Origin: Lutibacter sp.
Lineage (GTDB): Bacteria; Bacteroidota; Bacteroidia; Flavobacteriales; Flavobacteriaceae
Direction of reading: 5' to 3'
Assembly: GCA_041652835.1 (NCBI GenBank)
Contig: JBAZGP010000001.1
Location: 1 to 41,558 of the forward strand
DNA: 41,558 nucleotides
Shown: in pieces, positions 1,080 through 40,462 of the stretch
Layout of the letters: each line of letters begins with the position of its first letter
How positions within the stretch are numbered: position 1 is the first letter of the stretch
Notes under the pieces: generated by a model
Told to the model about the DNA's origin: nothing
Database searches by the model: none
The model's input: the letters and a program-made list of their open reading frames with translations, nothing else
Program-made: the position numbers and the translations under genes

Positions 1080-2845
1080 AGGAAAATCATTGGTTTAGCG
1101 ACCAGTTTTTTACAAAATATTCTTTTCCTTTTGACATTAAATTAATTGAAGCTTTAATTAAAGTTTTCGGTAATTTATTGGATGATAACAATGTGGTGTT
1201 AGAAACTTATTTTGAAGTTTTATATGTCGAAGGCAATAAAATTGAAACGGCTATTTTAGAAATAAATTCACAAAAAGGTTTAATTCTAAATGCTAAAATT
1301 CGTTATGGTTTTGATGAATTGCCAAACTGGAATAAAAAGTTAGCGGAACTGCCTTTGGAAGTAACTGCAATTACAGATATTTACGCACACGCCAAAACCA
1401 TTATTCCGCAAACGTGGCCAGCGGTAAATTATAACTATCCGCAAATTCATACCGATAAATACGATACTAATGAAGTTACCTGGGCTAATTTTAAAAAGAT
1501 TATTAATAATTATGATGGTACTAATTTTTTAGCCAATGTCTATAATGAATTTTATAAAGTAAATAGCAATATAATACAACCGTTACCTTACTTTCTGCAT
1601 ATTTTAACAGTTCTATTTGCTGATGCTGGCTATACATTAAAGGGAAATGTAACTACCAATGTCAACTTTAAAAAGCTATGCTTGTTTTCTGATATAGATT
1701 ATTTTAAAAATATCAATGGAAATTCTCAAACCTTGGTGTTAAAATCATCAGAATATACGCATATAGATAGTGATGGATTTTATAATTATGCTTTTCAAAT
1801 TACACTTAATAAAAATTCAGGTTATAGAGTTACTGGTAAGGTAATCTTTAATAATTTCTTTTCGGGGACTTTTTATCCATCAGAAATTTTAATAATGTAT
1901 AGAAACCAAGCTATATTTGGAAGAGTTGCCGTTTCTAATAGTGGGTTGACTGAATATAATTTAGATGCATCTTTTGTAACTATGGATGATGATAATAGTC
2001 ATACAATTGATATAACTGCAAAAATGTTATTGTTTTCAGAAGAAACGGAAATTTTAGACATTTCAATTCAAAGAGTATCTTTAATTAATATAGATGGTTT
2101 TGAAGCTCCTGTAGTTCCTGAAATATCTGAAATAAAATTATATAACGAAGTAGATTTAACCAAAGTAGTGCCTGATATTACGGGAGGAACATTCGTTTCC
2201 GCCTTAAAAAATTGGTACAATATAGATCTTACCATATTAGGCAAAGATATTTATATGAATTTCATTGAAAATGAAATTAATTACAATGATGCGGAAGATT
2301 TAAGCAATTTTGAAGTTTTAGAGCCTGCAAAAACATTCAACAATGATGTTTCCTTTTTGCTAAAATTTGCCGATGTAGATTCTGAAGCGTATAAATATGA
2401 TGTAATATTTCAAAACAAAGCCGGATTTGAAGTATCTGACAAAAATGTAAACAAACAAACCAATACAATCACTATTGATGCCCTGCCATTGCCTCAAAAA
2501 TATGCGGAAGGTGTGGAAACTGCCTTTGCTTTTGACCATGGTGGAAACAATAAAATTTATGCGGTACTTTATGATGGTTTAAATGCTGCCGGGTTAAATT
2601 TAACTGATGACATTACGCCTATTCTTATTCCTGCGGTACATCATAACCATTATAAAAAATGGTTTAATTTTAGAATTAATGCCATTAATTATGACTGGAC
2701 ATTTAAAATGTTTTCAGAAAAATTAGAAAAAATCAAAAAGAAAGTTTGGGCTTATGGCCGTTATCATGTTGTTAAAAGTATGAGTAAAACTCAAATAGAT
2801 GAAGATTTATACGAGGTAGATATTGAAACCCACAGTATGCCTTAA
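1016..2845 (+). CDS. Putative tail tip/baseplate hub protein
   Basis: 609 aa, beta-rich, second gene after the TMP; the TKYSFPF N-terminal motif resembles Bacteroidota phage tail proteins. Confidence 0.65.
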   Translation: MHKIIYSSYELDLTPFKITTVEENHWFSDQFFTKYSFPFDIKLIEALIKVFGNLLDDNNVVLETYFEVLYVEGNKIETAILEINSQKGLILNAKIRYGFDELPNWNKKLAELPLEVTAITDIYAHAKTIIPQTWPAVNYNYPQIHTDKYDTNEVTWANFKKIINNYDGTNFLANVYNEFYKVNSNIIQPLPYFLHILTVLFADAGYTLKGNVTTNVNFKKLCLFSDIDYFKNINGNSQTLVLKSSEYTHIDSDGFYNYAFQITLNKNSGYRVTGKVIFNNFFSGTFYPSEILIMYRNQAIFGRVAVSNSGLTEYNLDASFVTMDDDNSHTIDITAKMLLFSEETEILDISIQRVSLINIDGFEAPVVPEISEIKLYNEVDLTKVVPDITGGTFVSALKNWYNIDLTILGKDIYMNFIENEINYNDAEDLSNFEVLEPAKTFNNDVSFLLKFADVDSEAYKYDVIFQNKAGFEVSDKNVNKQTNTITIDALPLPQKYAEGVETAFAFDHGGNNKIYAVLYDGLNAAGLNLTDDITPILIPAVHHNHYKKWFNFRINAINYDWTFKMFSEKLEKIKKKVWAYGRYHVVKSMSKTQIDEDLYEVDIETHSMP

Positions 2846-3222
2846 TTCAAAAATTTAACAGATGATTTTTGTATATTTTTATCGGCAACTTTCAAATCTT
2901 TAGGCGTGTATGTGTCAGTTTGTGCAGAACTGTAATGCCTTGCCTGATCTCTAACCGAAATTAAAGGAACTCCTGCACGCAACAAATCAGTAATGCCACT
3001 ATCTTTAAGGCTATACCAATCAATATTTTTATTAATTGCCAGTTCCGTTCTCATTCGCGCCCAGCTTTTAGTAATTCTATCCGGATGAATAGGTCTAAAG
3101 AGTTTATCACCTCTAAAATTTGCGGAAGTTTGCCCTATAGAAGTATAAAAAAATTCTTTAGTAACATCTTGTTTTTCAGCAAATTGCTTAATTCTTTCTT
3201 TTATGGCCGAAACTTTATTCAC
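2842..3222 (-). pseudogene. In-frame chimera: CI-like repressor N-terminus (aa ~1-44) plus tyrosine integrase C-terminus (aa ~45-126)
   Basis: IKERIKQFAEKQDVTKEFFYTSIGQTSANFRG is an XRE-type repressor start divergent from a cro-like gene; WYSLKDSGITDLL...VRDQARHYSSAQTDTYT is a recombinase box II with His and Tyr; most of both proteins is missing. Confidence 0.8.
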
Positions 3223-3260
3223 TTTTATTTGTGTATATGAAACTTTATTCTCTATATTTA
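3209..3260. promoter_or_regulatory. Immunity-region operators/promoter: GAAACTTTATTC x2 (3209-3220, 3239-3250) and a -7-like TATATTTA (3253-3260)
   Basis: Exact 12-bp repeat between the divergent repressor-like and cro-like genes. Confidence 0.55.
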
Positions 3261-3329
3261 CATTATTAAAAAAACAATTACTGTTAGCAAGTTAACAATT
3301 TATTAAACACCAACAAAACATAGATTTCT

Positions 3330-3589: not shown

Positions 3590-4219
3590 ATGAAAGCAAT
3601 TGAATTTATTTATCAGGAAAACGCCATTCATTTTTTAGTGAATCCTAAAAATGACAATGTAATGATAAACGCCACAGAAATGGCAAAAGCATTTAATAAA
3701 AGAGTTGAAGATTTTAAAAGATTAGATGGTACTTCCATTTTTATTGAAGCACTTTTGAAGTCAGAAAATAGCAAGTTTGAACACGCAGATGTGCGTGAAC
3801 AACTTACCGAAAAAGATTCAGAAAACAGCAAATTTGAACCCTCACATGTGAGGGAACAACTTACCGAAAAAGATGTTATTTATGGAACCAATAAAGCCAC
3901 TTTTATGCACAGGAAATTGGCGATGTATTTTGCATTTTGGTTAGATGTTGATTTCCAAATTTGGATTATTGATACAATTGATGATATTTTATTTGGAAAC
4001 TACAAACAACACGATCAGGCAGTAATCGAAAATTTAAAGTTTGAAAAAGAACTTGAAGATGTAGAAGTTGAACTTTATAACAATCCTTTGTTTGTAAAAT
4101 ATCAAAATATCAATTTACTTATCAAAACTACAAACGCTGAAAAGCGCAAAGCTTTAAAAGCACAAATAAATCAAATTAAGTTAGATTTTTCAAACAGTGA
4201 TAAATCTACTTCACAATAG
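3590..4219 (+). CDS. KilA-N domain protein (antirepressor-like), copy 1
   Basis: VMINATEMAKAF...TFMHRKLAMYFAFWLDVDFQIWI KilA-N signature. Confidence 0.9.
   Translation: MKAIEFIYQENAIHFLVNPKNDNVMINATEMAKAFNKRVEDFKRLDGTSIFIEALLKSENSKFEHADVREQLTEKDSENSKFEPSHVREQLTEKDVIYGTNKATFMHRKLAMYFAFWLDVDFQIWIIDTIDDILFGNYKQHDQAVIENLKFEKELEDVEVELYNNPLFVKYQNINLLIKTTNAEKRKALKAQINQIKLDFSNSDKSTSQ
3761..3874 (+). repeat. 57-bp (19-aa) tandem duplication inside KilA-N copy 1
   Basis: SENSKFEHADVREQLTEKD / SENSKFEPSHVREQLTEKD at 3761-3817 and 3818-3874. Confidence 0.9.
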
Positions 4220-10084: not shown

Positions 10085-10504
10085 ATGAAAAAAACAGCAC
10101 ACGAATTTAAAGGCGGTTGGGGAAAAATAATTATTGAAGCCCCAACGCAAAAAGCGGCCAAAAAGGCTTTGCAAAGTTTCAAATTGAAAATTCTCTATTT
10201 AACGGTACACAAACAAGCATTTGATGTGATGGTAACGGGTGAAAAAACAAATGAATTCAGAAAATATACCAAATGGATTATTTCACGTCTTATAGACAAA
10301 AAAACGCTTAAACCAAAAGAATATGATGTTGTGAAGATTGTAAATGGTTACGGAAACTCCAGACCTTATTTTATAGCTGAATTTAAAGGGTTTTTCTATG
10401 CCGAATTATTTTCTGTCATTCATTATTCCAATGGATTGCAAGTAAAACAAGAACCCGGTGATTTTGTGATAAAACTTGGTAAAATAACGGAGCGAAAACA
10501 TTGA
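10085..10504 (+). CDS. ASCH/PUA-like domain protein
   Basis: LYLTVHKQAFDVMVTGEKTNEFR (GxKxxExR motif), NGY, and FVIKLG near the C-terminus. Confidence 0.8.
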   Translation: MKKTAHEFKGGWGKIIIEAPTQKAAKKALQSFKLKILYLTVHKQAFDVMVTGEKTNEFRKYTKWIISRLIDKKTLKPKEYDVVKIVNGYGNSRPYFIAEFKGFFYAELFSVIHYSNGLQVKQEPGDFVIKLGKITERKH

Positions 10505-10536
10505 AATTAATTAACCATAAACCAAACCTTTAAAAA

Positions 10537-10668
10537 ATGAGCCCAGAAACGTCAAAACCAATACCGCCTATGTTAAATATTTTATTCAAACTAAAATCCG
10601 GATTTGCAAAGTTCATAAAGTTTATGGAAGAACAGGCTAAGGATTGCCCTAGAGAAACGAAATGGTAG
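10537..10668 (+). CDS. 43-aa protein whose stop codon begins the attC-like site flank
   Basis: Translated by hand, MSPETSKP...CPRETKW*. Confidence 0.5.
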   Translation: MSPETSKPIPPMLNILFKLKSGFAKFIKFMEEQAKDCPRETKW

Positions 10669-10747
10669 CATTGTATTTAACTTACTGATTAAAATTTGGT
10701 GTAGCGTAGCGAATCAATTTTATCAGTTGTTAAATACAGTGCGATTT
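10666..10747 (+). repeat. attC-like site 1 (ATTTAAC 10675-10681 ... GTTAAAT 10729-10735)
   Basis: RYYYAAC/GTTRRRY cores and a bulged inner stem ACTGATtAAAATtTG/CAATTTTATCAGT; outer flanks recur at 20491 and 21689. Confidence 0.7.
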
Positions 10748-12829: not shown

Positions 12830-13170
12830 TCCCCCGTACCCCCTCAATATAAAACATCGGGTAAAAGGTAATGAGCGAAATCTAATTTTTTGGGAAAGAC
12901 AAATGTTTTAGAACCTACTCACCTACTTTTATATTAATAGTATAGATATTATTTATATAACATACTATATATTAAGATTTTAAATAAAAAAAACTCGGTA
13001 GGTGCTAGGTGTAAAAAAGGTAGGTAATAGGTAGGTGCTTTAAAAAATACAAAACCTACCTTTTTTACTGAAACCTACCTAGTACCTACCTTTTTAAAAT
13101 AGCTTTAATTTATTTATATAACTGATAATCAGTAATATTAGGTTAAAAGTAGGTGAGTAGGTGGTTCTAA
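12830..13170. other. Putative replication origin (ACCTAC/GTAGGT iteron array)
   Basis: Non-coding; perfect 18-bp IR 12913-12930/13145-13162, inner clusters of GTAGGT and ACCTAC, AT-rich spacers. Confidence 0.6.
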
Positions 13171-19085: not shown

Positions 19086-19111
19086 AAAAACCACTCAATT
19101 GAGTGGTTTTT
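19086..19111. terminator. Perfect 26-bp palindrome, bidirectional terminator
   Basis: AAAAACCACTCAATTGAGTGGTTTTT between convergent genes. Confidence 0.8.
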
Positions 19112-19113
19112 TT

Positions 19114-19329
19114 TTAGTTCATTTTAATTTCTTGAATAATATAATCTAAAATTTTGATGGGTTTGGACTTGTTTAACCTTGTTATTGTCCAATAAGAAGG
19201 AAATTTAGGTTCTACTAATTTAATTTCTTCACAAAGTTGCTTAAGGTTTGTAAATAAGCCTAAAGTGATGTTATCTCTATTAATAACGTAGTATTTCTTC
19301 TTTTTTAATCGCTCTTTATATGTAACCAT
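19114..19329 (-). CDS. 71-aa basic protein (module copy 1)
   Basis: Near-identical paralog at 35661-35876 with conservative substitutions. Confidence 0.8.
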   Translation of the reverse strand: MVTYKERLKKKKYYVINRDNITLGLFTNLKQLCEEIKLVEPKFPSYWTITRLNKSKPIKILDYIIQEIKMN

Positions 19330-19432
19330 ATTGCGAATTTACAAAAATAGTCGGAAATAAATACAAAAATATTTGTTTTACAATAAAAACCTGCTATCTT
19401 TGTAAAATATTAATATAAAATAACATAATATT

Positions 19433-19987
19433 ATGAATCAAAAAACAGAAACACCAACAGAAAATGTAGTTGAATTTTTGTACCAAGAAACACAAATTCA
19501 CTTTTTAGTAAATCCTAATGAAAAGGATGTAATGATTAATGCCACCGAAATGGCAAAACTTTTCGAAAAAAGAACGGGAGATTATTTAGCAAATCAAACC
19601 ACAAAAACGCTAATTAATGAACTTGAATTAACGCTAATTAGCGTTAATTCAAATGTTAAAATAATTGAAAACAGAGGTCAATTAGGTATGTATTTTTGTC
19701 CAATTTTAGCAATTGACTTTGCTACATGGTTAGATGTTAAATTTAAAATTTGGGTATATGAAACTATTATATCAATAATGTTTTCAAAAACCAAGTCTGT
19801 GGAAAATGCAGTATCTTTAAAACAACAACAAGAAGCTAAAAAAATAGCGTTAGTTGAAAAAGCCACTAAAGAAAATAATAAGGATTTTTTAGATTATTTA
19901 CTTGTTCAAAAAGCTATTAAAAAAATTACTTCTTTAGAAAACAAAGCCATTAATAATTTAAAATCTCAATATAAAATTAATTTTTAA
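19433..19987 (+). CDS. KilA-N domain protein, copy 2
   Basis: VMINATEMAKLF...LAIDFATWLDVKFKIWV. Confidence 0.9.
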   Translation: MNQKTETPTENVVEFLYQETQIHFLVNPNEKDVMINATEMAKLFEKRTGDYLANQTTKTLINELELTLISVNSNVKIIENRGQLGMYFCPILAIDFATWLDVKFKIWVYETIISIMFSKTKSVENAVSLKQQQEAKKIALVEKATKENNKDFLDYLLVQKAIKKITSLENKAINNLKSQYKINF

Positions 19988-20070
19988 TAAATTTTGGCGG
20001 GGATAATTATCCTCGCCAAATTAAAATTTTAAGCTATTTATTATCAGAATAAAAAAAATTATTATCTTTA

Positions 20071-20240
20071 CAACGACAAAAAAACCAGTACAATGATTTC
20101 AAAAACTAATTTTTTAACAATACGGCAGGAGTTCGGTAGCAGTAATGCCCGACAGCTTACATTACTTCGGTACTGGTTTGGCTGGTCAACTCCTGCTATT
20201 TTTAATATTTACCGTTATGACAGACAAAACCAGTACCCAA
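20071..20240 (+). ncRNA. Putative C4/CI-like antisense RNA or structured leader, copy 1
   Basis: -7-like TATCTTTA 20063-20070; closing stem GCAGGAGTT/AACTCCTGC; inner GGTACTGGTTT complementary to AAACCAGTAC both upstream and at the downstream gene start. Confidence 0.6.
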
Positions 20241-20486
20241 GAAAAAACACCTGTAAACATCGAAAAAGAAATAGCCTGGTTAATTGAAGGCTTTAATATG
20301 CATTTAAATTGTTTGGAAAGCCCTCAAAAGAAGCTACATTCTAGTTTAATGTGCTTAGATGAACAATCTTTCTCCGATGAAGAAAAACTTGTTGTAAGCA
20401 GTTTTTTAAATGATGTGTTGGCATTTACCTTTACTTTAAAGGACAGACCCGATGATATTAAAAAATTTATAGAATATCATACCTAA
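20217..20486 (+). CDS. 89-aa hypothetical protein (start revised to ATG 20217)
   Basis: Aligns end to end with 36744..37016 when started at MTDKTS. Confidence 0.75.
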   Translation: MTDKTSTQEKTPVNIEKEIAWLIEGFNMHLNCLESPQKKLHSSLMCLDEQSFSDEEKLVVSSFLNDVLAFTFTLKDRPDDIKKFIEYHT

Positions 20487-20610
20487 ATTTTAGCATTGTA
20501 TTTAACGTATACGTATATGAGCATCTTTTAAATTTAAGCGTTGGCAATTTGGCTGATAAGCCAAGAAATATGCGGTCTTTGAAATAGTTTCGTAAAGTTT
20601 TCGTAAATAA

Positions 20611-20664
20611 TAAGTAAATACTTACTAAAATATTTGCGAGATAGTAAGTATATACTTATCTTTG
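20611..20664 (+). promoter_or_regulatory. Bacteroidota sigma-A promoter (TTTG 20633-20636, TATCTTTG 20657-20664) with two TAAGTA-NN-TACTTA operators
   Basis: Canonical -33/-7 with a 20-nt spacer; palindromes at 20611-20624 and 20645-20658. Confidence 0.75.
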
Positions 20665-20687
20665 AGTATAATTAAAAAGCTAAATAT

Positions 20688-21093
20688 TATGACAACTTTA
20701 AAAATAGGACAAACAGTTTACACAACTTCAGGGATAGAAGGCACAATAGTTGAAAATCAAGGAATGTTTACATTAGTAAATGTTAATGGTGAAACTAAAA
20801 AGTTAATGACTATGATTTTAAAATCTAAACCAGTTTCTAAAAAAGTAAAATCGTATATGAAAGAAGAAACTAAAGAAGTTATAAATTTTAATTCAATAGT
20901 TAACAATTTAGAAGGAACTTCAAAAATGCGTAATTCTTTTACTTTACCAATTTATAATGAAATTGAAAAATTAGCAGATTCTAAAAACCATTTTGCAGGA
21001 TCAATTATAGAAGATGCAAGAAACGGAAAAAAAATATCAAAAAAACAAGCTCAAGTAGTTGCTTTTTTCGCAAAAGAAAATGGTTTAATCTAA
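20688..21093 (+). CDS. Hypothetical protein (start likely the ATG of MTTLKIGQ)
   Basis: ORF track TTG start lies inside the -7 box; N-terminus is a small beta (KOW/SH3-like) segment. Confidence 0.7.
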
Positions 21094-21104
21094 AAATTTG
21101 AAAG

Positions 21105-21521
21105 ATGAAAAATTTAAAAATTATAATAAAAGAAGATTTAACAATTTTAGAAATATCTAAAAAAGGAACATTGATTTTAAATTGCGATGACTATAAATTA
21201 TTTGGATTTGAAAATAGACCTTTCAATTTGTCAGCAGTTCCAATTGTTAATGGACATACTAAAAAAATAATTTATGAAGTAAAAGGAGCTTATAAGCATA
21301 CGTGGTCGCAATCTCAACAAAATATGAGTGAAATGGGTACTTTTAAAATTATTGATATTAAATCTATAAAAGATGAACTTAGTTTAACAGATGATGATTT
21401 AGCTAAAATGTTTGGTTATAAAAATAGACTTTCTTATACAAATTCATCTGCTAAAAGCAGAATTGAAAAAGGTTTAGTTTCTTTTTATTCTCTAATTAAA
21501 AAAAGCGAGGGAGAAATTTAA
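21105..21521 (+). CDS. Protein with C-terminal HTH (probable autoregulator)
   Basis: IKSIKDELSLTDDDLAKMFGYKNRLSY; the stop codon lies inside the right arm of the giant element. Confidence 0.65.
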   Translation: MKNLKIIIKEDLTILEISKKGTLILNCDDYKLFGFENRPFNLSAVPIVNGHTKKIIYEVKGAYKHTWSQSQQNMSEMGTFKIIDIKSIKDELSLTDDDLAKMFGYKNRLSYTNSSAKSRIEKGLVSFYSLIKKSEGEI

Positions 21522-21643
21522 AAGTTGCTTATATGCGAAGTTAACTGCCGTTTTTGAAAACTATGAAACGGCAAAAATAAAAAAGGAAATGAACAAAAAG
21601 AATAAAACAGTTAGAATAGAAATTGACATCGGACAAAAATGAC

Positions 21644-21708
21644 ATTTAACTTTCCGATTGAAAATTCGTTTTAATGAATTTTATCGGATGTTAAATACAG
21701 TGCGATTT
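21644..21708 (+). repeat. attC-like site 3 (ATTTAAC 21644-21650 ... GTTAAAT 21690-21696)
   Basis: Bulged stem TCCGATtgAAAATTC/GAATTTTATCGGA; right flank identical over 20 bp to 10728-10747. Confidence 0.7.
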
Positions 21709-21715
21709 ACCAACT

Positions 21716-21742
21716 AAAAGCCACTTAAAATAGTGGTTTTTT
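21716..21742. terminator. CCACT...AGTGG hairpin family member
   Basis: Stem with A and T tails. Confidence 0.65.
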
Positions 21743-21771
21743 AGTATATTTACTTAAATAATTTACAAATT

Positions 21772-22059
21772 ATGATAGACGCTACTCCTCAAATTACCCA
21801 ATTCTTAAAAGAGAATTTTAAGCCTTCTAACTTACTCGAAGCTACTCACAAACTAACTACACAACAGCTTTTAAACTTGCTTTTTAATGTGTTTCCAAAA
21901 GGTTCTATAGATGATTATGATTTATATCAAATTTTAATATCTTTACAGTACGCACCATTTAGAAATACAATTGAAATTGAAGATTTGGAAACCGATGAAA
22001 TAATTACCGAATTATCTTTAGTTTGGTGTTTGGAGGAATTAGGAACAATGCAATTTTAA
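21772..22059 (+). CDS. Hypothetical protein
   Basis: ORF track. Confidence 0.65.
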   Translation: MIDATPQITQFLKENFKPSNLLEATHKLTTQQLLNLLFNVFPKGSIDDYDLYQILISLQYAPFRNTIEIEDLETDEIITELSLVWCLEELGTMQF

Positions 22060-22062
22060 GTT

Positions 22063-22260
22063 ATGAAAGAATTAATAGAAGAGTTAAAACAAAAGCATTT
22101 TATTAAATCTATAAATGAAAGTTCGTCTAAAGATAGTAGTGACTTTCCTAGAATGGTAATAGGCTTAGAAAAGCATTTAGCTACTGAAAAGGAAATTTCC
22201 GATTTATTTAGTTTAATGAGAAATCAAAAACATATAAAAAAATGGGTAATAGAAATGTAA
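22063..22260 (+). CDS. Hypothetical protein
   Basis: ORF track, packed operon. Confidence 0.6.
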   Translation: MKELIEELKQKHFIKSINESSSKDSSDFPRMVIGLEKHLATEKEISDLFSLMRNQKHIKKWVIEM

Positions 22261-35434: not shown

Positions 35435-35660
35435 ACTAAAAATGTTGCTGTTATGCCGGTTCAATTAAAGCTGCAACCCAATTATTTAGAAATTTACGAT
35501 TCACAATTTTTACATAATTATGCAAACAATTACAAGCTAAACAGCACTGCTAAAATTCATTTTTACCAGAGTTACCCCTATAAGCAACCCATACCCTTTC
35601 TCTATACATAGTGCCATTACTTGGATTTAAAAAACCACTCGATTGAGTGGTTTTTGTTGT

Positions 35661-35876
35661 TTAGTTCATTTTAATTTCTTGAATAATATAATCTAAAATT
35701 TTGATGGGTTTGGACTTATCTAACCTTGTTATTGTCCAATAAGAAGGAAACTTAGGCTCTATTAATTTAATTTCTTCACAAAGTTGCTTAAGGTTTGTAA
35801 ATAACCCTAAAGTGATGTTATCCTTATTAATAACGTAGTATTTCTTCTTTTTTAATTGCTCTTTATATGTAACCAT
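35661..35876 (-). CDS. 71-aa basic protein (module copy 2)
   Basis: Paralog of 19114..19329; start set at MVTYKE. Confidence 0.8.
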   Translation of the reverse strand: MVTYKEQLKKKKYYVINKDNITLGLFTNLKQLCEEIKLIEPKFPSYWTITRLDKSKPIKILDYIIQEIKMN

Positions 35877-35979
35877 ATCGCAAATATACATATATATTCG
35901 AAAATAAACGTATATTTATTTGTTTTATAAAAATATTCGAGTATCTTTGTAAAATATTAATATAAAATAACATAATATT

Positions 35980-36546
35980 ATGAGTCAAAAAACAGAAACA
36001 CCAACAGAAAATGTAGTTGAATTTTTGTACCAAGAAACACAAATTCACTTTTTAGTAAATCCTAATGAAAGGGATGTAATGATTAACGCCACAGAAATGG
36101 CTAAAATGTTTGATAAAAGAATTGATGTTTATTTAAAAACACAACCAACAAAAGCATTTATTGAAGCACTTCAATTTACACCTGTAGGTGGAAATTCAAC
36201 GCCATTATCGTATGAACAAATTATACAAACAAAAGGTCATTTAGGTACTTTTATGCATCGTAAATTAGCTTTAGATTTTGCAGCTTGGTTGGATGTTAAT
36301 TTTAGAGTTTGGATAATTAATACAATTGATGAAATTCTATTTTCAAAAACGGAACCAATTGCAAATGCAGTTTCTTTAAAACAAAAACAAGAATCTGAAC
36401 AAAAGGCTTTAATTGAAAAAGCTACTTTAGAAAAAAATGAAGATTTCTTAAGCTATATTAAACTACAAAAAGCCATTAAAAAAACGACTTCTTTAGAAAA
36501 CAAAGCTTTAAATAATTTAAAATCTCAATATAAAATTAATTTTTAA
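35980..36546 (+). CDS. KilA-N domain protein, copy 3
   Basis: VMINATEMAKMF...GTFMHRKLALDFAAWLDVNFRVWI. Confidence 0.9.
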   Translation: MSQKTETPTENVVEFLYQETQIHFLVNPNERDVMINATEMAKMFDKRIDVYLKTQPTKAFIEALQFTPVGGNSTPLSYEQIIQTKGHLGTFMHRKLALDFAAWLDVNFRVWIINTIDEILFSKTEPIANAVSLKQKQESEQKALIEKATLEKNEDFLSYIKLQKAIKKTTSLENKALNNLKSQYKINF

Positions 36547-36596
36547 CCATCCCCCTCAGGGGGTATAGTTGAATTCAAAAAAAATTATTATCTTTA

Positions 36597-36765
36597 CAAC
36601 GCGAAAAACCAGAAAAACAATGATTTTCAAAAACAATTTTTTAACAATACGGCAGGAGTTCGGAAGCGGTAACGCTCCGACAGTTTCGATTACTTCGGTT
36701 TTCTGGTACTGCGCACCTCCTGCTATTTTTAATCTTCAATATTATGCGAAAACCAGAAGAAACAC
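36597..36765 (+). ncRNA. Putative C4/CI-like antisense RNA or structured leader, copy 2
   Basis: TATCTTTA 36589-36596; stem GCAGGAG/CTCCTGC; inner GTTTTCTGGT..GCGCA complementary to GCGAAAAACCAGAAAA upstream and TGCGAAAACCAGAA at the gene start. Confidence 0.6.
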
Positions 36766-37016
36766 CAAAAGAAAAATCACCATTAAAAATTGAATCCGAA
36801 TTAGCCTATTGGCTCGATGAATTTAACGGGCATTTAGAATTTTTAGAGCATCCGCAAATGAAATTGCACAGCGCTTTAATGTCTTTAGATGATCAATGTT
36901 TTACAGAATCTGAACAAATTACTTTAGCCGCTTTTTTAAACACAGCATTGGCATTAACATTTATTGTAAAAGACAATAAAGAAGCTGTTCAAAAATTTAT
37001 AGAATACAATACTTAA
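36744..37016 (+). CDS. 90-aa hypothetical protein (module copy 2)
   Basis: Paralog of 20217..20486. Confidence 0.75.
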   Translation: MRKPEETPKEKSPLKIESELAYWLDEFNGHLEFLEHPQMKLHSALMSLDDQCFTESEQITLAAFLNTALALTFIVKDNKEAVQKFIEYNT

Positions 37017-37094
37017 AAAAAAACTATCGTTGATAGTAGGGTTGCGAAACATTTTGTACAATTGCTAAAAACCACTCAATCGAGTGGTTTTTTT

Positions 37095-37504: not shown

Positions 37505-40462
37505 ATGGCAGAGGAAGATATTAAAAGAAAAATATCCATTTGGATAAACGACAAAGAAGTTAATGACAGCCTTGGAGGAATTGGGCGTGAAATTGGCAAA
37601 CTAAAACGTGAAATAAGAGAAGCTACAGACCCAGCCGACAGGGCGCGGTTAAATAAACAATTAACCGAAACCAAAAAACGTTATGCCGATATTAATACAG
37701 AAATTAATGGCACAAATGGTTTTTTAGACAAAATGAAAGCCAAACTCGGACCCATCGCTTCGGGGTTTTTGGCTGCTTTTTCTATAGGCGCACTTGTTAC
37801 CGGCGCAATGGCCGCATTAAGAGGCGCTACCAAAACAATTAACGATTTTGAACAAGGAATTGCCGATTTAAAAGCGATTACCGGCGCAACTGGCGATGAT
37901 TTAGAATACTTAAAAAAACAGACCATAGATTTAGGTGTAAAAACAAAAGGCGGCGCTATTGCGGTTGTTGAAGCCTACAAATTAATAGCATCTGCCAAAC
38001 CTGAATTATTAGAAGATGTAAAAGCATTAAATGCCGTTACGGAAGCCACACTTATTTTAGCGCAAGCCTCCGGAATGGAATTACCAAAAGCCGCAACCGC
38101 TTTAACGGATGCGATGAATCAATATGGCGTTGATGCAAAAGAAGCTATTCCTTTTGTAGATGCTTTGGCTGCTGGTGCTAAATATGGCGCCGCTGAAATT
38201 GAAAATGAAACCGAATCTTTATTAAAATTTGGTGCCGTTGCCCGTACTTCAAATGTAAATATTAAAGAAAGTGTTGGCTTAATTCAATTAATGGCAGAAA
38301 ACGGTGAAAAAGGCGCTGAAGCTGGTACCAAATTAAGAAACATACTTTTAAAAATTTCTGCTCCGGATGCACTTCCTAAAGAAGCACAGGCAATTTTCAA
38401 GGAATTGGGAATTGATATGGAATTTTTAAAAGACAAATCCATTCCTGTTCAGCAAAAATTAGAAGCTTTAAAACCATTATTGCAAGATAACGCCAATATT
38501 GTAAAAGTTTTTGGAATTGAAAATGCCACAGCTGCTTTAAATGTTTTAGGCCATACCGACAGACTTGCCGAACTGACTTCTAAAATGGGTGAAGTTGGTG
38601 TTGCTTCAGAACAAGCCGCCATTAAAATGGATACAGTTCAGGGGAAATCTGACCTTTTAGCCAGTAAATATGATAGTTTAATACTTTCCGTAAGTACTGG
38701 AGGCGGGGCAGTTTCAAACTTCTTTAAATTCTGGATTGATGGTGCTTCAAGTGCGTTAACAGGTTTAACCAGGCTAAATTCGTCATGGGATGAATTGTAT
38801 GCAAGGGCTCAAAGTGATGGGGAAACAAAAGGGGTTAAATCATTTGCGGAAAGGTTTAATAATTTAGCCGGAACCGGTAATGATGCCGATGTAGCCAAAT
38901 CTGTAAAAGAAGCGGCAAGAAACACTTTATACACGCTTAAACAATCCTATAAAGAAAATGAGGAAGCAATGGCGGCTCACAATCCTTGGGCGCTAAATTT
39001 TAGCGGTGTTTCTCCGAAGGATATGAAAGAAAATAAAGAAAAATTAACCAAAGAAATTGCCGCGTACAATACCATTATTTCTGAAGCTAACAATAAAATA
39101 AATTCGTTTGAAAATCCAAATTTAGGCGCTGGCGTACCAACAACACCGGGAACGCCAACGACGCCAACAGGTTCATTAACCGATGATGAAAGTAAAAAAA
39201 GAGAAGCGGCCGCGAAAAAATATAAAGAAGCTGAAGAACAACTTACGGCAAGTATCAAGCAACAACAAGAACAACGTGCTATAAATCAGAAAGAAGGCTT
39301 AGACAAAGAACTTGCGACTATAGATGAAAAATACCGCATTCAAATTGAAAAGGCAGCCGGACATGATGAACAAATTAAAGAACTCGAAGCTTTACGCGAT
39401 CAGGAAAAACAAGATTTAACATTACAAAGAGCTGCTGAATTTGAAATTAAGAAAAAGGAGTTACAGGATGAAATTGATTTGCAAAATGCAACAACTCAAG
39501 AAGAGGCCGATGCATTAAAATTAACGCTTGATTCTGAAAAGGAAATTTTGGAATTGGATAAATTGGCTCTTTCTGAAATTCAAAAAGGGGAATTAAAAAA
39601 GAAAATCATTGAAAAATACAACAATGATATTGATAAACTTACCGAAGCTGCGGCATTAAAAAGACTTCAAAAACAAGCGGAATTTGATATTCAGGAAATT
39701 AATTTTGAAAAACAAAAATCTGAAATTAAAATTGGGTTAGCGCAACAATTAGGCGGTGTTTTAATTGGTCTTTTAGGTGATTCTTTAGGCGCACAATTGG
39801 CTGCAATTGCACTCAATGCAATAATAGAAGTTGCCAAAATACAAATTGCCACATCCGCAGCACAAGCAATAAATTTAGCACAAGCTGTAGCCTTAGGTCC
39901 TATATTGGGACCGCCAGCAATTGTAGCAGCAAAAATAACGAACGCTAGTTTAGGCGCTACCTCAAAATTACAGCAAGGTGCCGTTATTGGCGCGGCTGCT
40001 ATTAGCGGTTTAGGTGCTGTATTAAAGAAAAAATCCCATTTTGATGGTGGCTATACCGGTGATGAAGTCATTTACCCAGATGAACATGGAGGTATTGTTG
40101 GCGGTGTTCATAAAAATGAATGGGTAGGCCCGGCAATAATGACACAAAACCCAAAGTATGCCGCAAACTTCGCCTATTTAGAAGCCGAAAGGCAAAGGCT
40201 TAAACGCGGTTATTTTGATGGTGGCACAGTTACTGAAAACAAAGCTGCCGGTACTTCATTTATTGCTGAAACTTCAAGTGCTCCAGCAGCAAACTATGAT
40301 CAAAATTTGATTAATGCCATAAATAAAAATTCTGAATTATTAGAATATTTGAAAGTACACGGCATTTTGGCTGTTGTTTCCAACAAAGATTATAAGTCTA
40401 TGAAATTGCTTCAGGAAGGCATTAACGATTACAATGATTTAAGAAACACAAATAAAGTATAA
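37505..40462 (+). CDS. Tail tape measure protein (TP901-like core)
   Basis: FEQGIADLKAITGAT, GAEAGTKLRNIL, long coiled coil, Ala/Gly-rich TM segments, FDGGYTG. Confidence 0.93.
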   Translation: MAEEDIKRKISIWINDKEVNDSLGGIGREIGKLKREIREATDPADRARLNKQLTETKKRYADINTEINGTNGFLDKMKAKLGPIASGFLAAFSIGALVTGAMAALRGATKTINDFEQGIADLKAITGATGDDLEYLKKQTIDLGVKTKGGAIAVVEAYKLIASAKPELLEDVKALNAVTEATLILAQASGMELPKAATALTDAMNQYGVDAKEAIPFVDALAAGAKYGAAEIENETESLLKFGAVARTSNVNIKESVGLIQLMAENGEKGAEAGTKLRNILLKISAPDALPKEAQAIFKELGIDMEFLKDKSIPVQQKLEALKPLLQDNANIVKVFGIENATAALNVLGHTDRLAELTSKMGEVGVASEQAAIKMDTVQGKSDLLASKYDSLILSVSTGGGAVSNFFKFWIDGASSALTGLTRLNSSWDELYARAQSDGETKGVKSFAERFNNLAGTGNDADVAKSVKEAARNTLYTLKQSYKENEEAMAAHNPWALNFSGVSPKDMKENKEKLTKEIAAYNTIISEANNKINSFENPNLGAGVPTTPGTPTTPTGSLTDDESKKREAAAKKYKEAEEQLTASIKQQQEQRAINQKEGLDKELATIDEKYRIQIEKAAGHDEQIKELEALRDQEKQDLTLQRAAEFEIKKKELQDEIDLQNATTQEEADALKLTLDSEKEILELDKLALSEIQKGELKKKIIEKYNNDIDKLTEAAALKRLQKQAEFDIQEINFEKQKSEIKIGLAQQLGGVLIGLLGDSLGAQLAAIALNAIIEVAKIQIATSAAQAINLAQAVALGPILGPPAIVAAKITNASLGATSKLQQGAVIGAAAISGLGAVLKKKSHFDGGYTGDEVIYPDEHGGIVGGVHKNEWVGPAIMTQNPKYAANFAYLEAERQRLKRGYFDGGTVTENKAAGTSFIAETSSAPAANYDQNLINAINKNSELLEYLKVHGILAVVSNKDYKSMKLLQEGINDYNDLRNTNKV

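Follow-up and report, generated by a model that had tools for sequence, protein, structure and literature searches.

The window considered here is the whole stretch of 41,558 bp that was analysed; it is the entire contig C1 of a 4.0-Mb metagenome-assembled genome of Lutibacter sp. (588 contigs, completeness 93%). The contig is a tailed-phage genome with a GC content of 32% and nearly all genes on the + strand. PHROG matches identify terminase, portal, protease, tape measure, primase and methyltransferase, and three KilA-N paralogs are present as well. Binning does not prove which host the phage infected; a Bacteroidota host is likely, as deduced solely from the promoter type and a match to a Polaribacter phage. 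At 20507-21650 (+ strand, as for all features below unless stated otherwise) lies a cassette of 1,144 bp, which is present here and absent from the related phage G401. It holds two small genes, ORF1 and ORF2, behind a predicted promoter, and it carries a long imperfect inverted repeat around them. The relatives used for comparison are G401 (IMG/VR; loci L023 and L024) and G402 (locus L065). All three are mosaic phages, with numerous replacements at the borders of genes.

The edges of the cassette can be read from the empty site. In G401 the upstream gene (84% amino acid identity) and the downstream gene (94%) are direct neighbours. Window positions 20238-20499 align with L023 3040-3300 at 91%, and 21644-22065 with L023 3301-3723 at 93-96%. 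The heptamer ATTTAAC occurs once in the relative and twice in the window, as left junction (20500-20506) and as right junction (21644-21650). Because of this direct repeat, the limits may equally be given as 20500-21643. Both edges of the indel lie in ATTTAAC, and the crossover point within the 7 bp is not resolvable from one event. A first-pass annotation of the window had proposed a mobile unit of about 1 kb reaching from an AAC to a GTT. A discrete indel of ~1.1 kb does exist, and its left edge is this very AAC; its right edge, 21650, lies 104 nt past the GTT (21540-21542). The two ends of the 1,144-bp unit, compared by eye, are not inverted copies of each other. Read along the + strand, the parts are ATTTAAC, GTATA, the left arm of the inverted repeat, the genes, the right arm, AA, GTTAACT, a non-coding tail of 97 nt, ATTTAAC and the rest of a hairpin down to GTTAAAT. 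When viral contigs were searched with the right-flank pattern, the relative was found again; the other match was due to chance, being inside an SbcC-like gene. From the contig runs X2 to X4, window parts without contig cover were left out of the evidence. A contig joint in X3 leading from 20506 to 21673 via 30 other letters was rejected as a second variant of the empty site: its 30 letters match a paralogous hairpin (10682-10711) at 29 of 30 positions, and the joint is therefore cross-mapping of a repeat.

What the cassette interrupts is a structure of its own. In the empty site there is an intact hairpin of ~65 nt, here called H, with a folding energy of -19.5 kcal/mol (z -8.3) and the foot ATTTAAC/GTTAAAT. 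It consists of an outer stem GCATTGTATTTAAC / GTTAAATACATTGC, a spacer of 2 nt on one side and 1 nt on the other, and an inner stem with a bulge. The cassette is placed exactly between outer stem and spacer and parts the left outer stem (20494-20506) from the remainder (ATTTAAC-TT-TCCGAT...ATCGGA-T-GTTAAAT-ACAGTGC; 21644-21703). An intact paralogous copy of H is found at 10668-10738, and further copies at 20658 and 30212 in G401 and at ~37566 in G402. The paralogs have the 14-nt outer stem in identical form and differ, in a compensated way, in the inner stem; of the 29 pairs of the consensus fold, five have changes on both sides. H is conserved with compensatory changes in three phages. Its two coaxial stems (~14 and 12-17 bp) are separated by a small internal loop. 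As DNA, the copies fold with -16 to -19.5 kcal/mol (z -6 to -9), which none of 200 shuffles equalled. H has no T run and is not a terminator; a separate terminator-like hairpin with a T run follows at 21716-21741, is resident and is present in the relative too. What is shown directly is a discrete, promoter-bearing two-gene cassette, its exact position in a conserved hairpin and its 7-bp repeat.

Other stretches beside H copies also vary. Compared with G402, the window has ~170 extra bases at 10513-10681, next to the intact H copy; they hold an ORF of ~43 codons, and their edges read ...TTAAC and ...ATTTAAC. A degenerate copy of the left half of H (CATTGAAATTAATTAAC, ending at 10512) precedes them. 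An array of attC-like sites was considered for this region and discarded, the small insertion 10494-10590 having no compact hairpin (minimum free energy, MFE, 0). G402, in turn, has ~570 extra bases directly after its H copy (L065, ~37640-38180), flanked by two direct repeats of ~30 nt, TTTGAAAAAAC..ACTTAAAATGAATTGGA.

The proteins encoded by the cassette are poorly classifiable. Neither finds a match in Pfam, PHROG or PADLOC. ORF1 (20689-21093, 134 aa) has 19 close homologs, counting itself, and 42 cluster representatives; ORF2 (21105-21521, 138 aa) has 6 homologs. The N-terminus of ORF1 looks like a small beta barrel of the SH3/Tudor type and is followed by a conserved helical C-terminal domain. 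Sub-threshold matches of the 19 members point to YajC (6), HypC (6), the MutS2 SH3 domain (4) and the PcrA/UvrD Tudor domain (2); the latter is also met by 3 of 16 distant members with 21.4-22.7 bits (cut-off 23.9). The best Foldseek rows are Tudor, KOW, SH3 and Hfq-like domains, none of them at E<=0.001. ORF2 is modelled (pLDDT 86) with a beta-rich N-terminal domain and four C-terminal helices. A phage protein of 78 aa shares the helical part only (54% identity). No Pfam HTH match of ORF2 is seen even at E<=1 and no Foldseek fold match at E<=0.001; small HTH regulators are its neighbours in the Atlas (0.80-0.82), no more than a lead. Profile searches of viral contigs and genome contigs retrieved no relatives of ORF1, nor did an order-level search of 400 genomes. 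A family-level DNA search returned short AT-rich noise, the paralog of the upstream gene at 36677-37017, and the chromosomal locus L029. There, ORF2 is paired with a protein that keeps only the C-terminal domain of ORF1. Among seven metagenome loci from JGI with ORF1, ORF2 is the neighbour in one (L008); in the other six, unrelated small genes follow.

The first-pass annotation had described the regulatory elements correctly, as it had the 134-aa ORF1 and the stop codon of ORF2 inside the right arm. The predicted promoter (20633-20664) is of the Bacteroidota type, with TTTG (-33) at 20633-20636 and, after the canonical spacer of 20 nt, TATCTTTG (-7) at 20657-20664; its motif is kept in L008 and L029. 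Operator O1, TAAGTAAATACTTA, lies at 20611-20624 and has counterparts in L008 and L029; operator O2, TAAGTATATACTTA, at 20645-20658, overlaps the first two nucleotides of the -7 box. These are the sole two exact matches to the operator in the window, and 0 of 100 shuffles contained any; the operators are far beyond chance. In all three loci with ORF2 (window, L008, L029) the operator pair stands in the same register to the -7 box, the second operator ends on the second base of that box, and TTTG or CTTG is found ~19-20 nt upstream of it (20 nt in the window and L029). The window has TAAGTA half-sites, L008 and L029 have TAGGTA half-sites, and these types go with two sequence classes of the C-terminal helices of ORF2. 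No TAAGTA/TAGGTA-type pair occurs in the six loci without ORF2, a few of which have unrelated palindromes upstream. Operator pairs co-occur with ORF2, and this supports the prediction that the protein binds them and is the likely repressor of its own promoter. The cargo would be an autonomous operon: a promoter flanked and overlapped by two operators, ORF1, and a self-repressing ORF2. A local hairpin in the 97-nt tail (TGCCGTTT...AAACGGCA, 21546-21573) is not followed by a T run; the T-run terminator at 21716-21741 is part of the resident sequence.

Around this operon lies the inverted repeat. Its left arm, CGTATATGAGCATCTTTTAAATTT (20512-20535), starts 5 nt inside the left edge of the cassette; its right arm, AAATTTAAAAGTTGCTTATATGCG (21514-21537), contains the stop codon of ORF2 (TAA, 21519-21521). 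The arms had been located correctly before: they are complementary at 21 of 24 positions, ungapped, with 978 nt between them, and two of the three mismatches are G-T pairs on the + strand (the three being T-G, G-T and T-T). The AAC and GTT reported beside them are also there, not immediately adjacent but at distances of 5 nt (GTATA) and 2 nt (AA), respectively. The AAC (20504-20506) is the end of the left ATTTAAC, which fits the consensus RYYYAAC at 7/7 positions; the GTT is the beginning of GTTAACT (21540-21546), which fits GTTRRRY at 6/7, and the two boxes are complementary to each other at 6/7. RYYYAAC occurs about once per kb and strand. For a random pair of positions spaced like the arms, the probability of finding RYYYAAC no more than 8 nt outside one of them and GTT no more than 8 nt outside the other is 0.0005. 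The repeat as such is modest. Markov shuffles of the window yield 0.12-0.36 loci per window with an inverted repeat of at least 21/24 and a loop of 20-1500 nt; such a locus was contained in 7 of 25 shuffles of order 1, 3 of 25 of order 2 and 2 of 25 of order 3, and the real window has four. The duplex energy of the arms, -18.8 kcal/mol (DNA), was reached by 2 of 29,993 random pairs of window segments. Because of these numbers, the inverted repeat is to be called real, yet only weakly beyond chance when judged in the window alone. Shuffling just the flanks of the cassette never reproduced it (0/200). On the - strand the arms fold with -15.4 kcal/mol, as against -18.8 on the + strand. The end regions of the cassette fold no better than shuffled sequence (z -0.4 and -0.2), and no terminal inverted repeats or target duplication were found at the arm edges.

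The layout recurs in one other, distant cassette. In L009, a TARA contig, ORF1 is 35% identical and the second gene is a different one; the sequence reads AGTTAAC-GGTTT-GTACATAACAAGTAATTTA ... TAAATTATTTTTTATGTAC-GTT. The arms (19 nt, pairing at 17/19; 2 of 200 shuffles reached as much) differ in sequence from those of the window, the right one begins 6 nt after the stop codon of the second gene, and the succession AAC, 5 nt, arm ... arm, GTT is that of the window. The left ends of the window, L009 and L008 can be aligned up to a shared AAGCG..TTGGCAA motif. The motif GCGTTGGCAA (20538-20547) also occurs at the left ends of L009 and, interrupted, of L008. A count of compensatory pairs between the arms of the window and L009 (6/19) was dropped, since slid registers give 8-13 and the count adds nothing to the fact that both loci have a repeat there. 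The arm sequence of the window is not found as a site anywhere else: in its own assembly only the two arms match the pattern, public viral contigs gave 0 matches, and the single match in genome contigs was a chance one, inside an NAD synthetase-like gene and without a partner arm. L005 and L006 have another conserved left-end sequence after an AAC box, common to both. In L005, intergenic ATTTAAC boxes at 55 and 374 bracket a minus-strand gene of 77 codons (region 55-380), which sits just upstream of an ORF1 cassette.

How did the cassette come to be where it is? We prefer, tentatively and with somewhat less than even confidence, to see in the arms a part of a hairpin-guided recombination site of the 1,144-bp cassette. 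Its insertion would have come about through a recombination specific for the ATTTAAC/GTTAAAT foot of folded hairpins, with the arms as the cassette's own version of such a hairpin-foot site. The ends of the cassette and H do share a design, i.e., a foot, a small asymmetric spacer and a second stem. In attC sites of integrons, strand exchange takes place between A and C of the AAC in the R' box, and the folded bottom strands carry more G:T mispairs, as stated in the sections of PMC5027507 dealing with these points. The G-T pairs in the arms favour the + strand as the recombining strand. If the + strand is taken as this "bottom" strand, the order of parts would be that of an integrated integron cassette: its own site with R' at 20500-20506, a body of 97 nt, and the resident site with R' at 21644-50. 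Strand exchange would occur at AA|C between two folded sites and be catalysed by an enzyme other than the integron integrase IntI. The junction of an excised circle would read ...GACATTTAAC joined to GTATACG.... Candidate enzymes might be a 397-aa integrase of the relatives, a Xer-type recombinase of the host or a Y1 transposase of the host. G401 and G402 have the gene of the 397-aa tyrosine recombinase at the place where ~1.5 kb are missing in the window. The host assembly encodes many tyrosine recombinases and, above cut-off, seven Y1 transposases of the IS200/IS605 or REP-associated type (contigs C509, C21, C163, C188, C109, C5 and C48); none of the latter was found on the phage contig or in the relatives.

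A number of observations weigh against this mechanism. Integrons are very rare in Bacteroidetes, as stated in the part of PMC9024848 that treats their distribution. The best scores for the integron integrase (TIGR02249; cut-off 265) are 109 bits in the 4.0-Mb assembly and 34.6 and 29.1 in the relatives. The tyrosine recombinase of the window (2842-3291, - strand) is a truncated remnant; what is left of it are the C-terminal ~90 residues, including the His and Tyr region. Neither of the two proteins of the cassette is similar to a recombinase. The arms have mismatches and no bulged bases, a stem closing a loop of 978 nt is unlikely to fold often, and the weak within-window statistics and the lack of the arm sequence as a site at any other locus (assembly, viral contigs, genome contigs) have been mentioned. 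Of six testable cassettes, only the window and L009 have a significant flanking repeat. L008 is borderline (p=0.07); L005, L006 and L029 showed none in the shuffle test; L003, L004 and L007 had too little flank to be included. The empty site is known from a single comparison. The stretch inserted next to the other copy of H (10513-10681) does not itself form a hairpin (MFE 0), and other indels among the mosaic phages have plain junctions, e.g., the neighbouring indel of a 186-bp gene (22066-22251), where the junction is the start codon ATG. Finally, contigs of run X2 that are ~96% identical to 20586-21487 continue with unlike sequence left of 20586/20588 as loose ends; therefore the module of promoter and genes also travels without this left end.

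Many of these observations fit another view. Phage morons are autonomous accessory transcription units between conserved genes, and the cassette shares with them its presence or absence between close relatives, its position between conserved genes, a predicted promoter of its own and genes without assigned function. If it is an ordinary moron, then illegitimate, template-switch or microhomology recombination at a mosaic junction would account for the gain or loss of the module. ATTTAAC would have served as the microhomology and the hairpin as a stalling site or hot spot; the 24-nt repeat would be due to chance or be a remnant that plays no part in movement. This reading, with the repeat as incidental, is a strong rival, even if we are inclined to doubt it. 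The mosaicism of the three phages at gene borders, the plain ATG junction next door, the weak significance of the repeat in the window, the three of six cassettes without one, the occurrence of the gene module in other contexts and the absence of a recombinase at hand all speak for it. It does not easily account for an event of single-base precision by which a perfect conserved hairpin is restored or split, for a left arm starting 5 nt from an independently found junction, or for a repeat in L009 at homologous places with other sequence; the exact insertion at a conserved hairpin foot, the 7-bp repeat and the inverted arms that recur in another cassette set the locus apart from morons. Alternatively, the structures might act in RNA. 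H could be a processing, stabilising or antitermination hairpin in polycistronic + strand transcripts. Like the stems that flank rRNA precursors, arms and boxes would pair over a long distance in read-through RNA, in a duplex of ~31 bp similar to H, and the cassette message would thereby be cut out or insulated. All genes here are indeed on the + strand, the G-T pairs of the arms and of the outer stem of H favour this strand, the architecture of H with its two coaxial stems and small internal loop would suit such a role, and the cassette sits between the upstream gene and its terminator. The left arm, however, is upstream of the promoter of the cassette, so that both arms are carried by read-through RNA only; the identity of the outer stem across paralogs suggests sequence-specific recognition, the window has no Rfam family matches, and the exact insertion with its 7-bp repeat is left unexplained. 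We regard a role in RNA as improbable.

The first-pass annotation had read the locus as a giant attC site with its cargo in the loop. A true attC site recombined by the integron integrase is close to refuted. The boxes at both ends do fit RYYYAAC and GTTRRRY, the junction lies in the AAC box, and the parts follow the order of an integrated cassette by the definitions given in the consulted sections of PMC5027507. The span from box to box, however, is 1,047 nt instead of the 57-141 nt of a compact attC hairpin, i.e., about seven times the maximum; extrahelical bases are missing from the ungapped arms (the target hairpin H does have bulges), and no IntI is found in the assembly or the relatives. 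Moreover, there is no array, the cassette has a predicted promoter of its own, its genes are located within the site in antisense orientation to what would be the top strand, and the phylum is, as said, an unusual one for integrons. Membership in the attC family of integrons fails by size, bulged bases, integrase and array context. Just as hard to credit is an invertible, phase-variable segment, in which a DNA invertase would use the arms as crossover sites and turn round the promoter together with both genes. In Bacteroidota, promoter-bearing segments between inverted repeats of 20-30 bp are common, and tyrosine recombinases abound in the host assembly; yet the aligned contigs, which cannot show rare forms, have no strand-changing joint at the arms, three positions of the arms are mismatched, the contig has no invertase, and the indel is not explained. 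A toxin-antitoxin or defence pair, with ORF1 as toxin and ORF2 as antitoxin and repressor, had also been suggested. The operon of two genes, the operators overlapping its promoter and the small, predicted DNA-binding second gene are in line with it. It is nevertheless very unlikely: no known toxin family, in fact no Pfam, PHROG or PADLOC entry, matches, the pairing is not obligate, as six of seven metagenome loci have unrelated genes after ORF1 and L029 combines ORF2 with a C-terminal domain only, and the N-terminus of ORF1 resembles an SH3/Tudor barrel and not a known toxin fold.

Comparison with known systems may help to delimit the hairpin-guided cassette that we prefer. In the CTX phage and other elements that exploit Xer, distant inverted half-sites fold and a host tyrosine recombinase exchanges them with a chromosomal site; the elements themselves carry no recombinase. 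The present cassette has likewise two inverted half-sites some distance apart and no recombinase, yet no dif-like 11-6-11 site could be made out, and it resides inside a phage genome instead of being a phage that enters a chromosome. The idea that the boxes resemble a dif site was dropped because of the misfit in spacing. Elements of the IS200/IS605 family and their non-autonomous hairpin derivatives move as single strands, guided by hairpins, and insert beside a short specific sequence, the enzyme possibly acting in trans. Both edges of the cassette follow ATTTAAC, and there are the seven Y1 transposases in the assembly; those elements, in contrast, have local subterminal hairpins at each end and not a long-range repeat, and no Y1 transposase is encoded on the phage contig or in the related phages. 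T4-type phages have PeSL regulatory cassettes, in which short conserved stem-loops, repeated in variable regions, border inserted, deleted or replaced genes; PeSLs are described in PMC2839356 as units of promoter plus terminator that recombine by homology, and their exchanges can yield small circles. Unlike these, the junctions here have only 7 bp in common, and H is not a terminator. Closest in geometry are the integron cassettes. Common to both, as far as attC sites are portrayed in the cited sections of PMC5027507, are a folded, imperfect hairpin whose foot is RYYYAAC/GTTRRRY and whose second stem follows a small unpaired spacer, a junction in the AAC box, a 7-bp core at both cassette edges, an own site abutting one edge and G-T pairs on one strand; the missing IntI, the 978-nt loop holding genes, the unbulged arms, the predicted promoter of its own, the location in a phage and the lack of an array set the present locus apart. 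In geometry it resembles an integron site; it is not shown to be one.

A more far-reaching possibility, which we consider rather unlikely, is a whole system of hairpin-site cassettes in phages of this group, likely with Bacteroidota hosts. The conserved intergenic hairpins with ATTTAAC/GTTAAAT foot would then be docking sites, each promoter-bearing cassette would have its genes in the loop of a giant site of its own, and insertion and excision would occur at AA|C between folded single strands by means of a recombinase that is not an integron integrase. If so, phages would have an integron-like route of moron acquisition. How phages acquire morons is a long-standing open question, and the usual answer is "illegitimate recombination". 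Here one gain or loss is readable to the base, at the foot of a conserved hairpin, and a structure-specific mechanism is directly testable at this locus. The recombination of folded sites, as in integrons and CTX-type phages, would extend to cassette traffic inside phage genomes, and this in a phylum where integrons are nearly absent. Should the mechanism fail, the locus still offers a clean case of an accessory operon that regulates itself and whose operators covary with the regulator.

Some further features of the contig deserve mention. G401 lacks a gene of 65 codons (22063-22260) that lies downstream of the cassette; in G402 other sequence takes its place. A paralog of the upstream neighbour gene of the cassette (20145-20486) is found at 36677-37017 (67% DNA identity); these genes belong to a duplicated module (19086-20486 and 35629-37091). 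The module begins with a terminator hairpin AAAAACCACTC(A/G)AT(T/C)GAGTGGTTTTT, seen at 19086, 35629 and 37066, and continues with a small gene on the minus strand, a promoter and 5' region that hardly differ between the copies (-7 boxes at 19395 and 35942) and KilA-N genes (19433-19987 and 35980-36546); the third KilA-N gene is at 3590-4219. Paralogs of one and the same phrog_19217 gene are found at both ends of the contig (1-1080 and 40462-41558). Between the last 44 bases and 1036-1078 there is similarity but not identity, and the contig has no exact terminal repeat; the paralogs may reflect a tandem duplication of a tail gene or an unresolved circular join. In the non-coding stretch 12913-13162, dense, iteron-like inverted repeats of the GGTAGGT/ACCTACC type are kept in both relatives, as seen from the inverted self-match.

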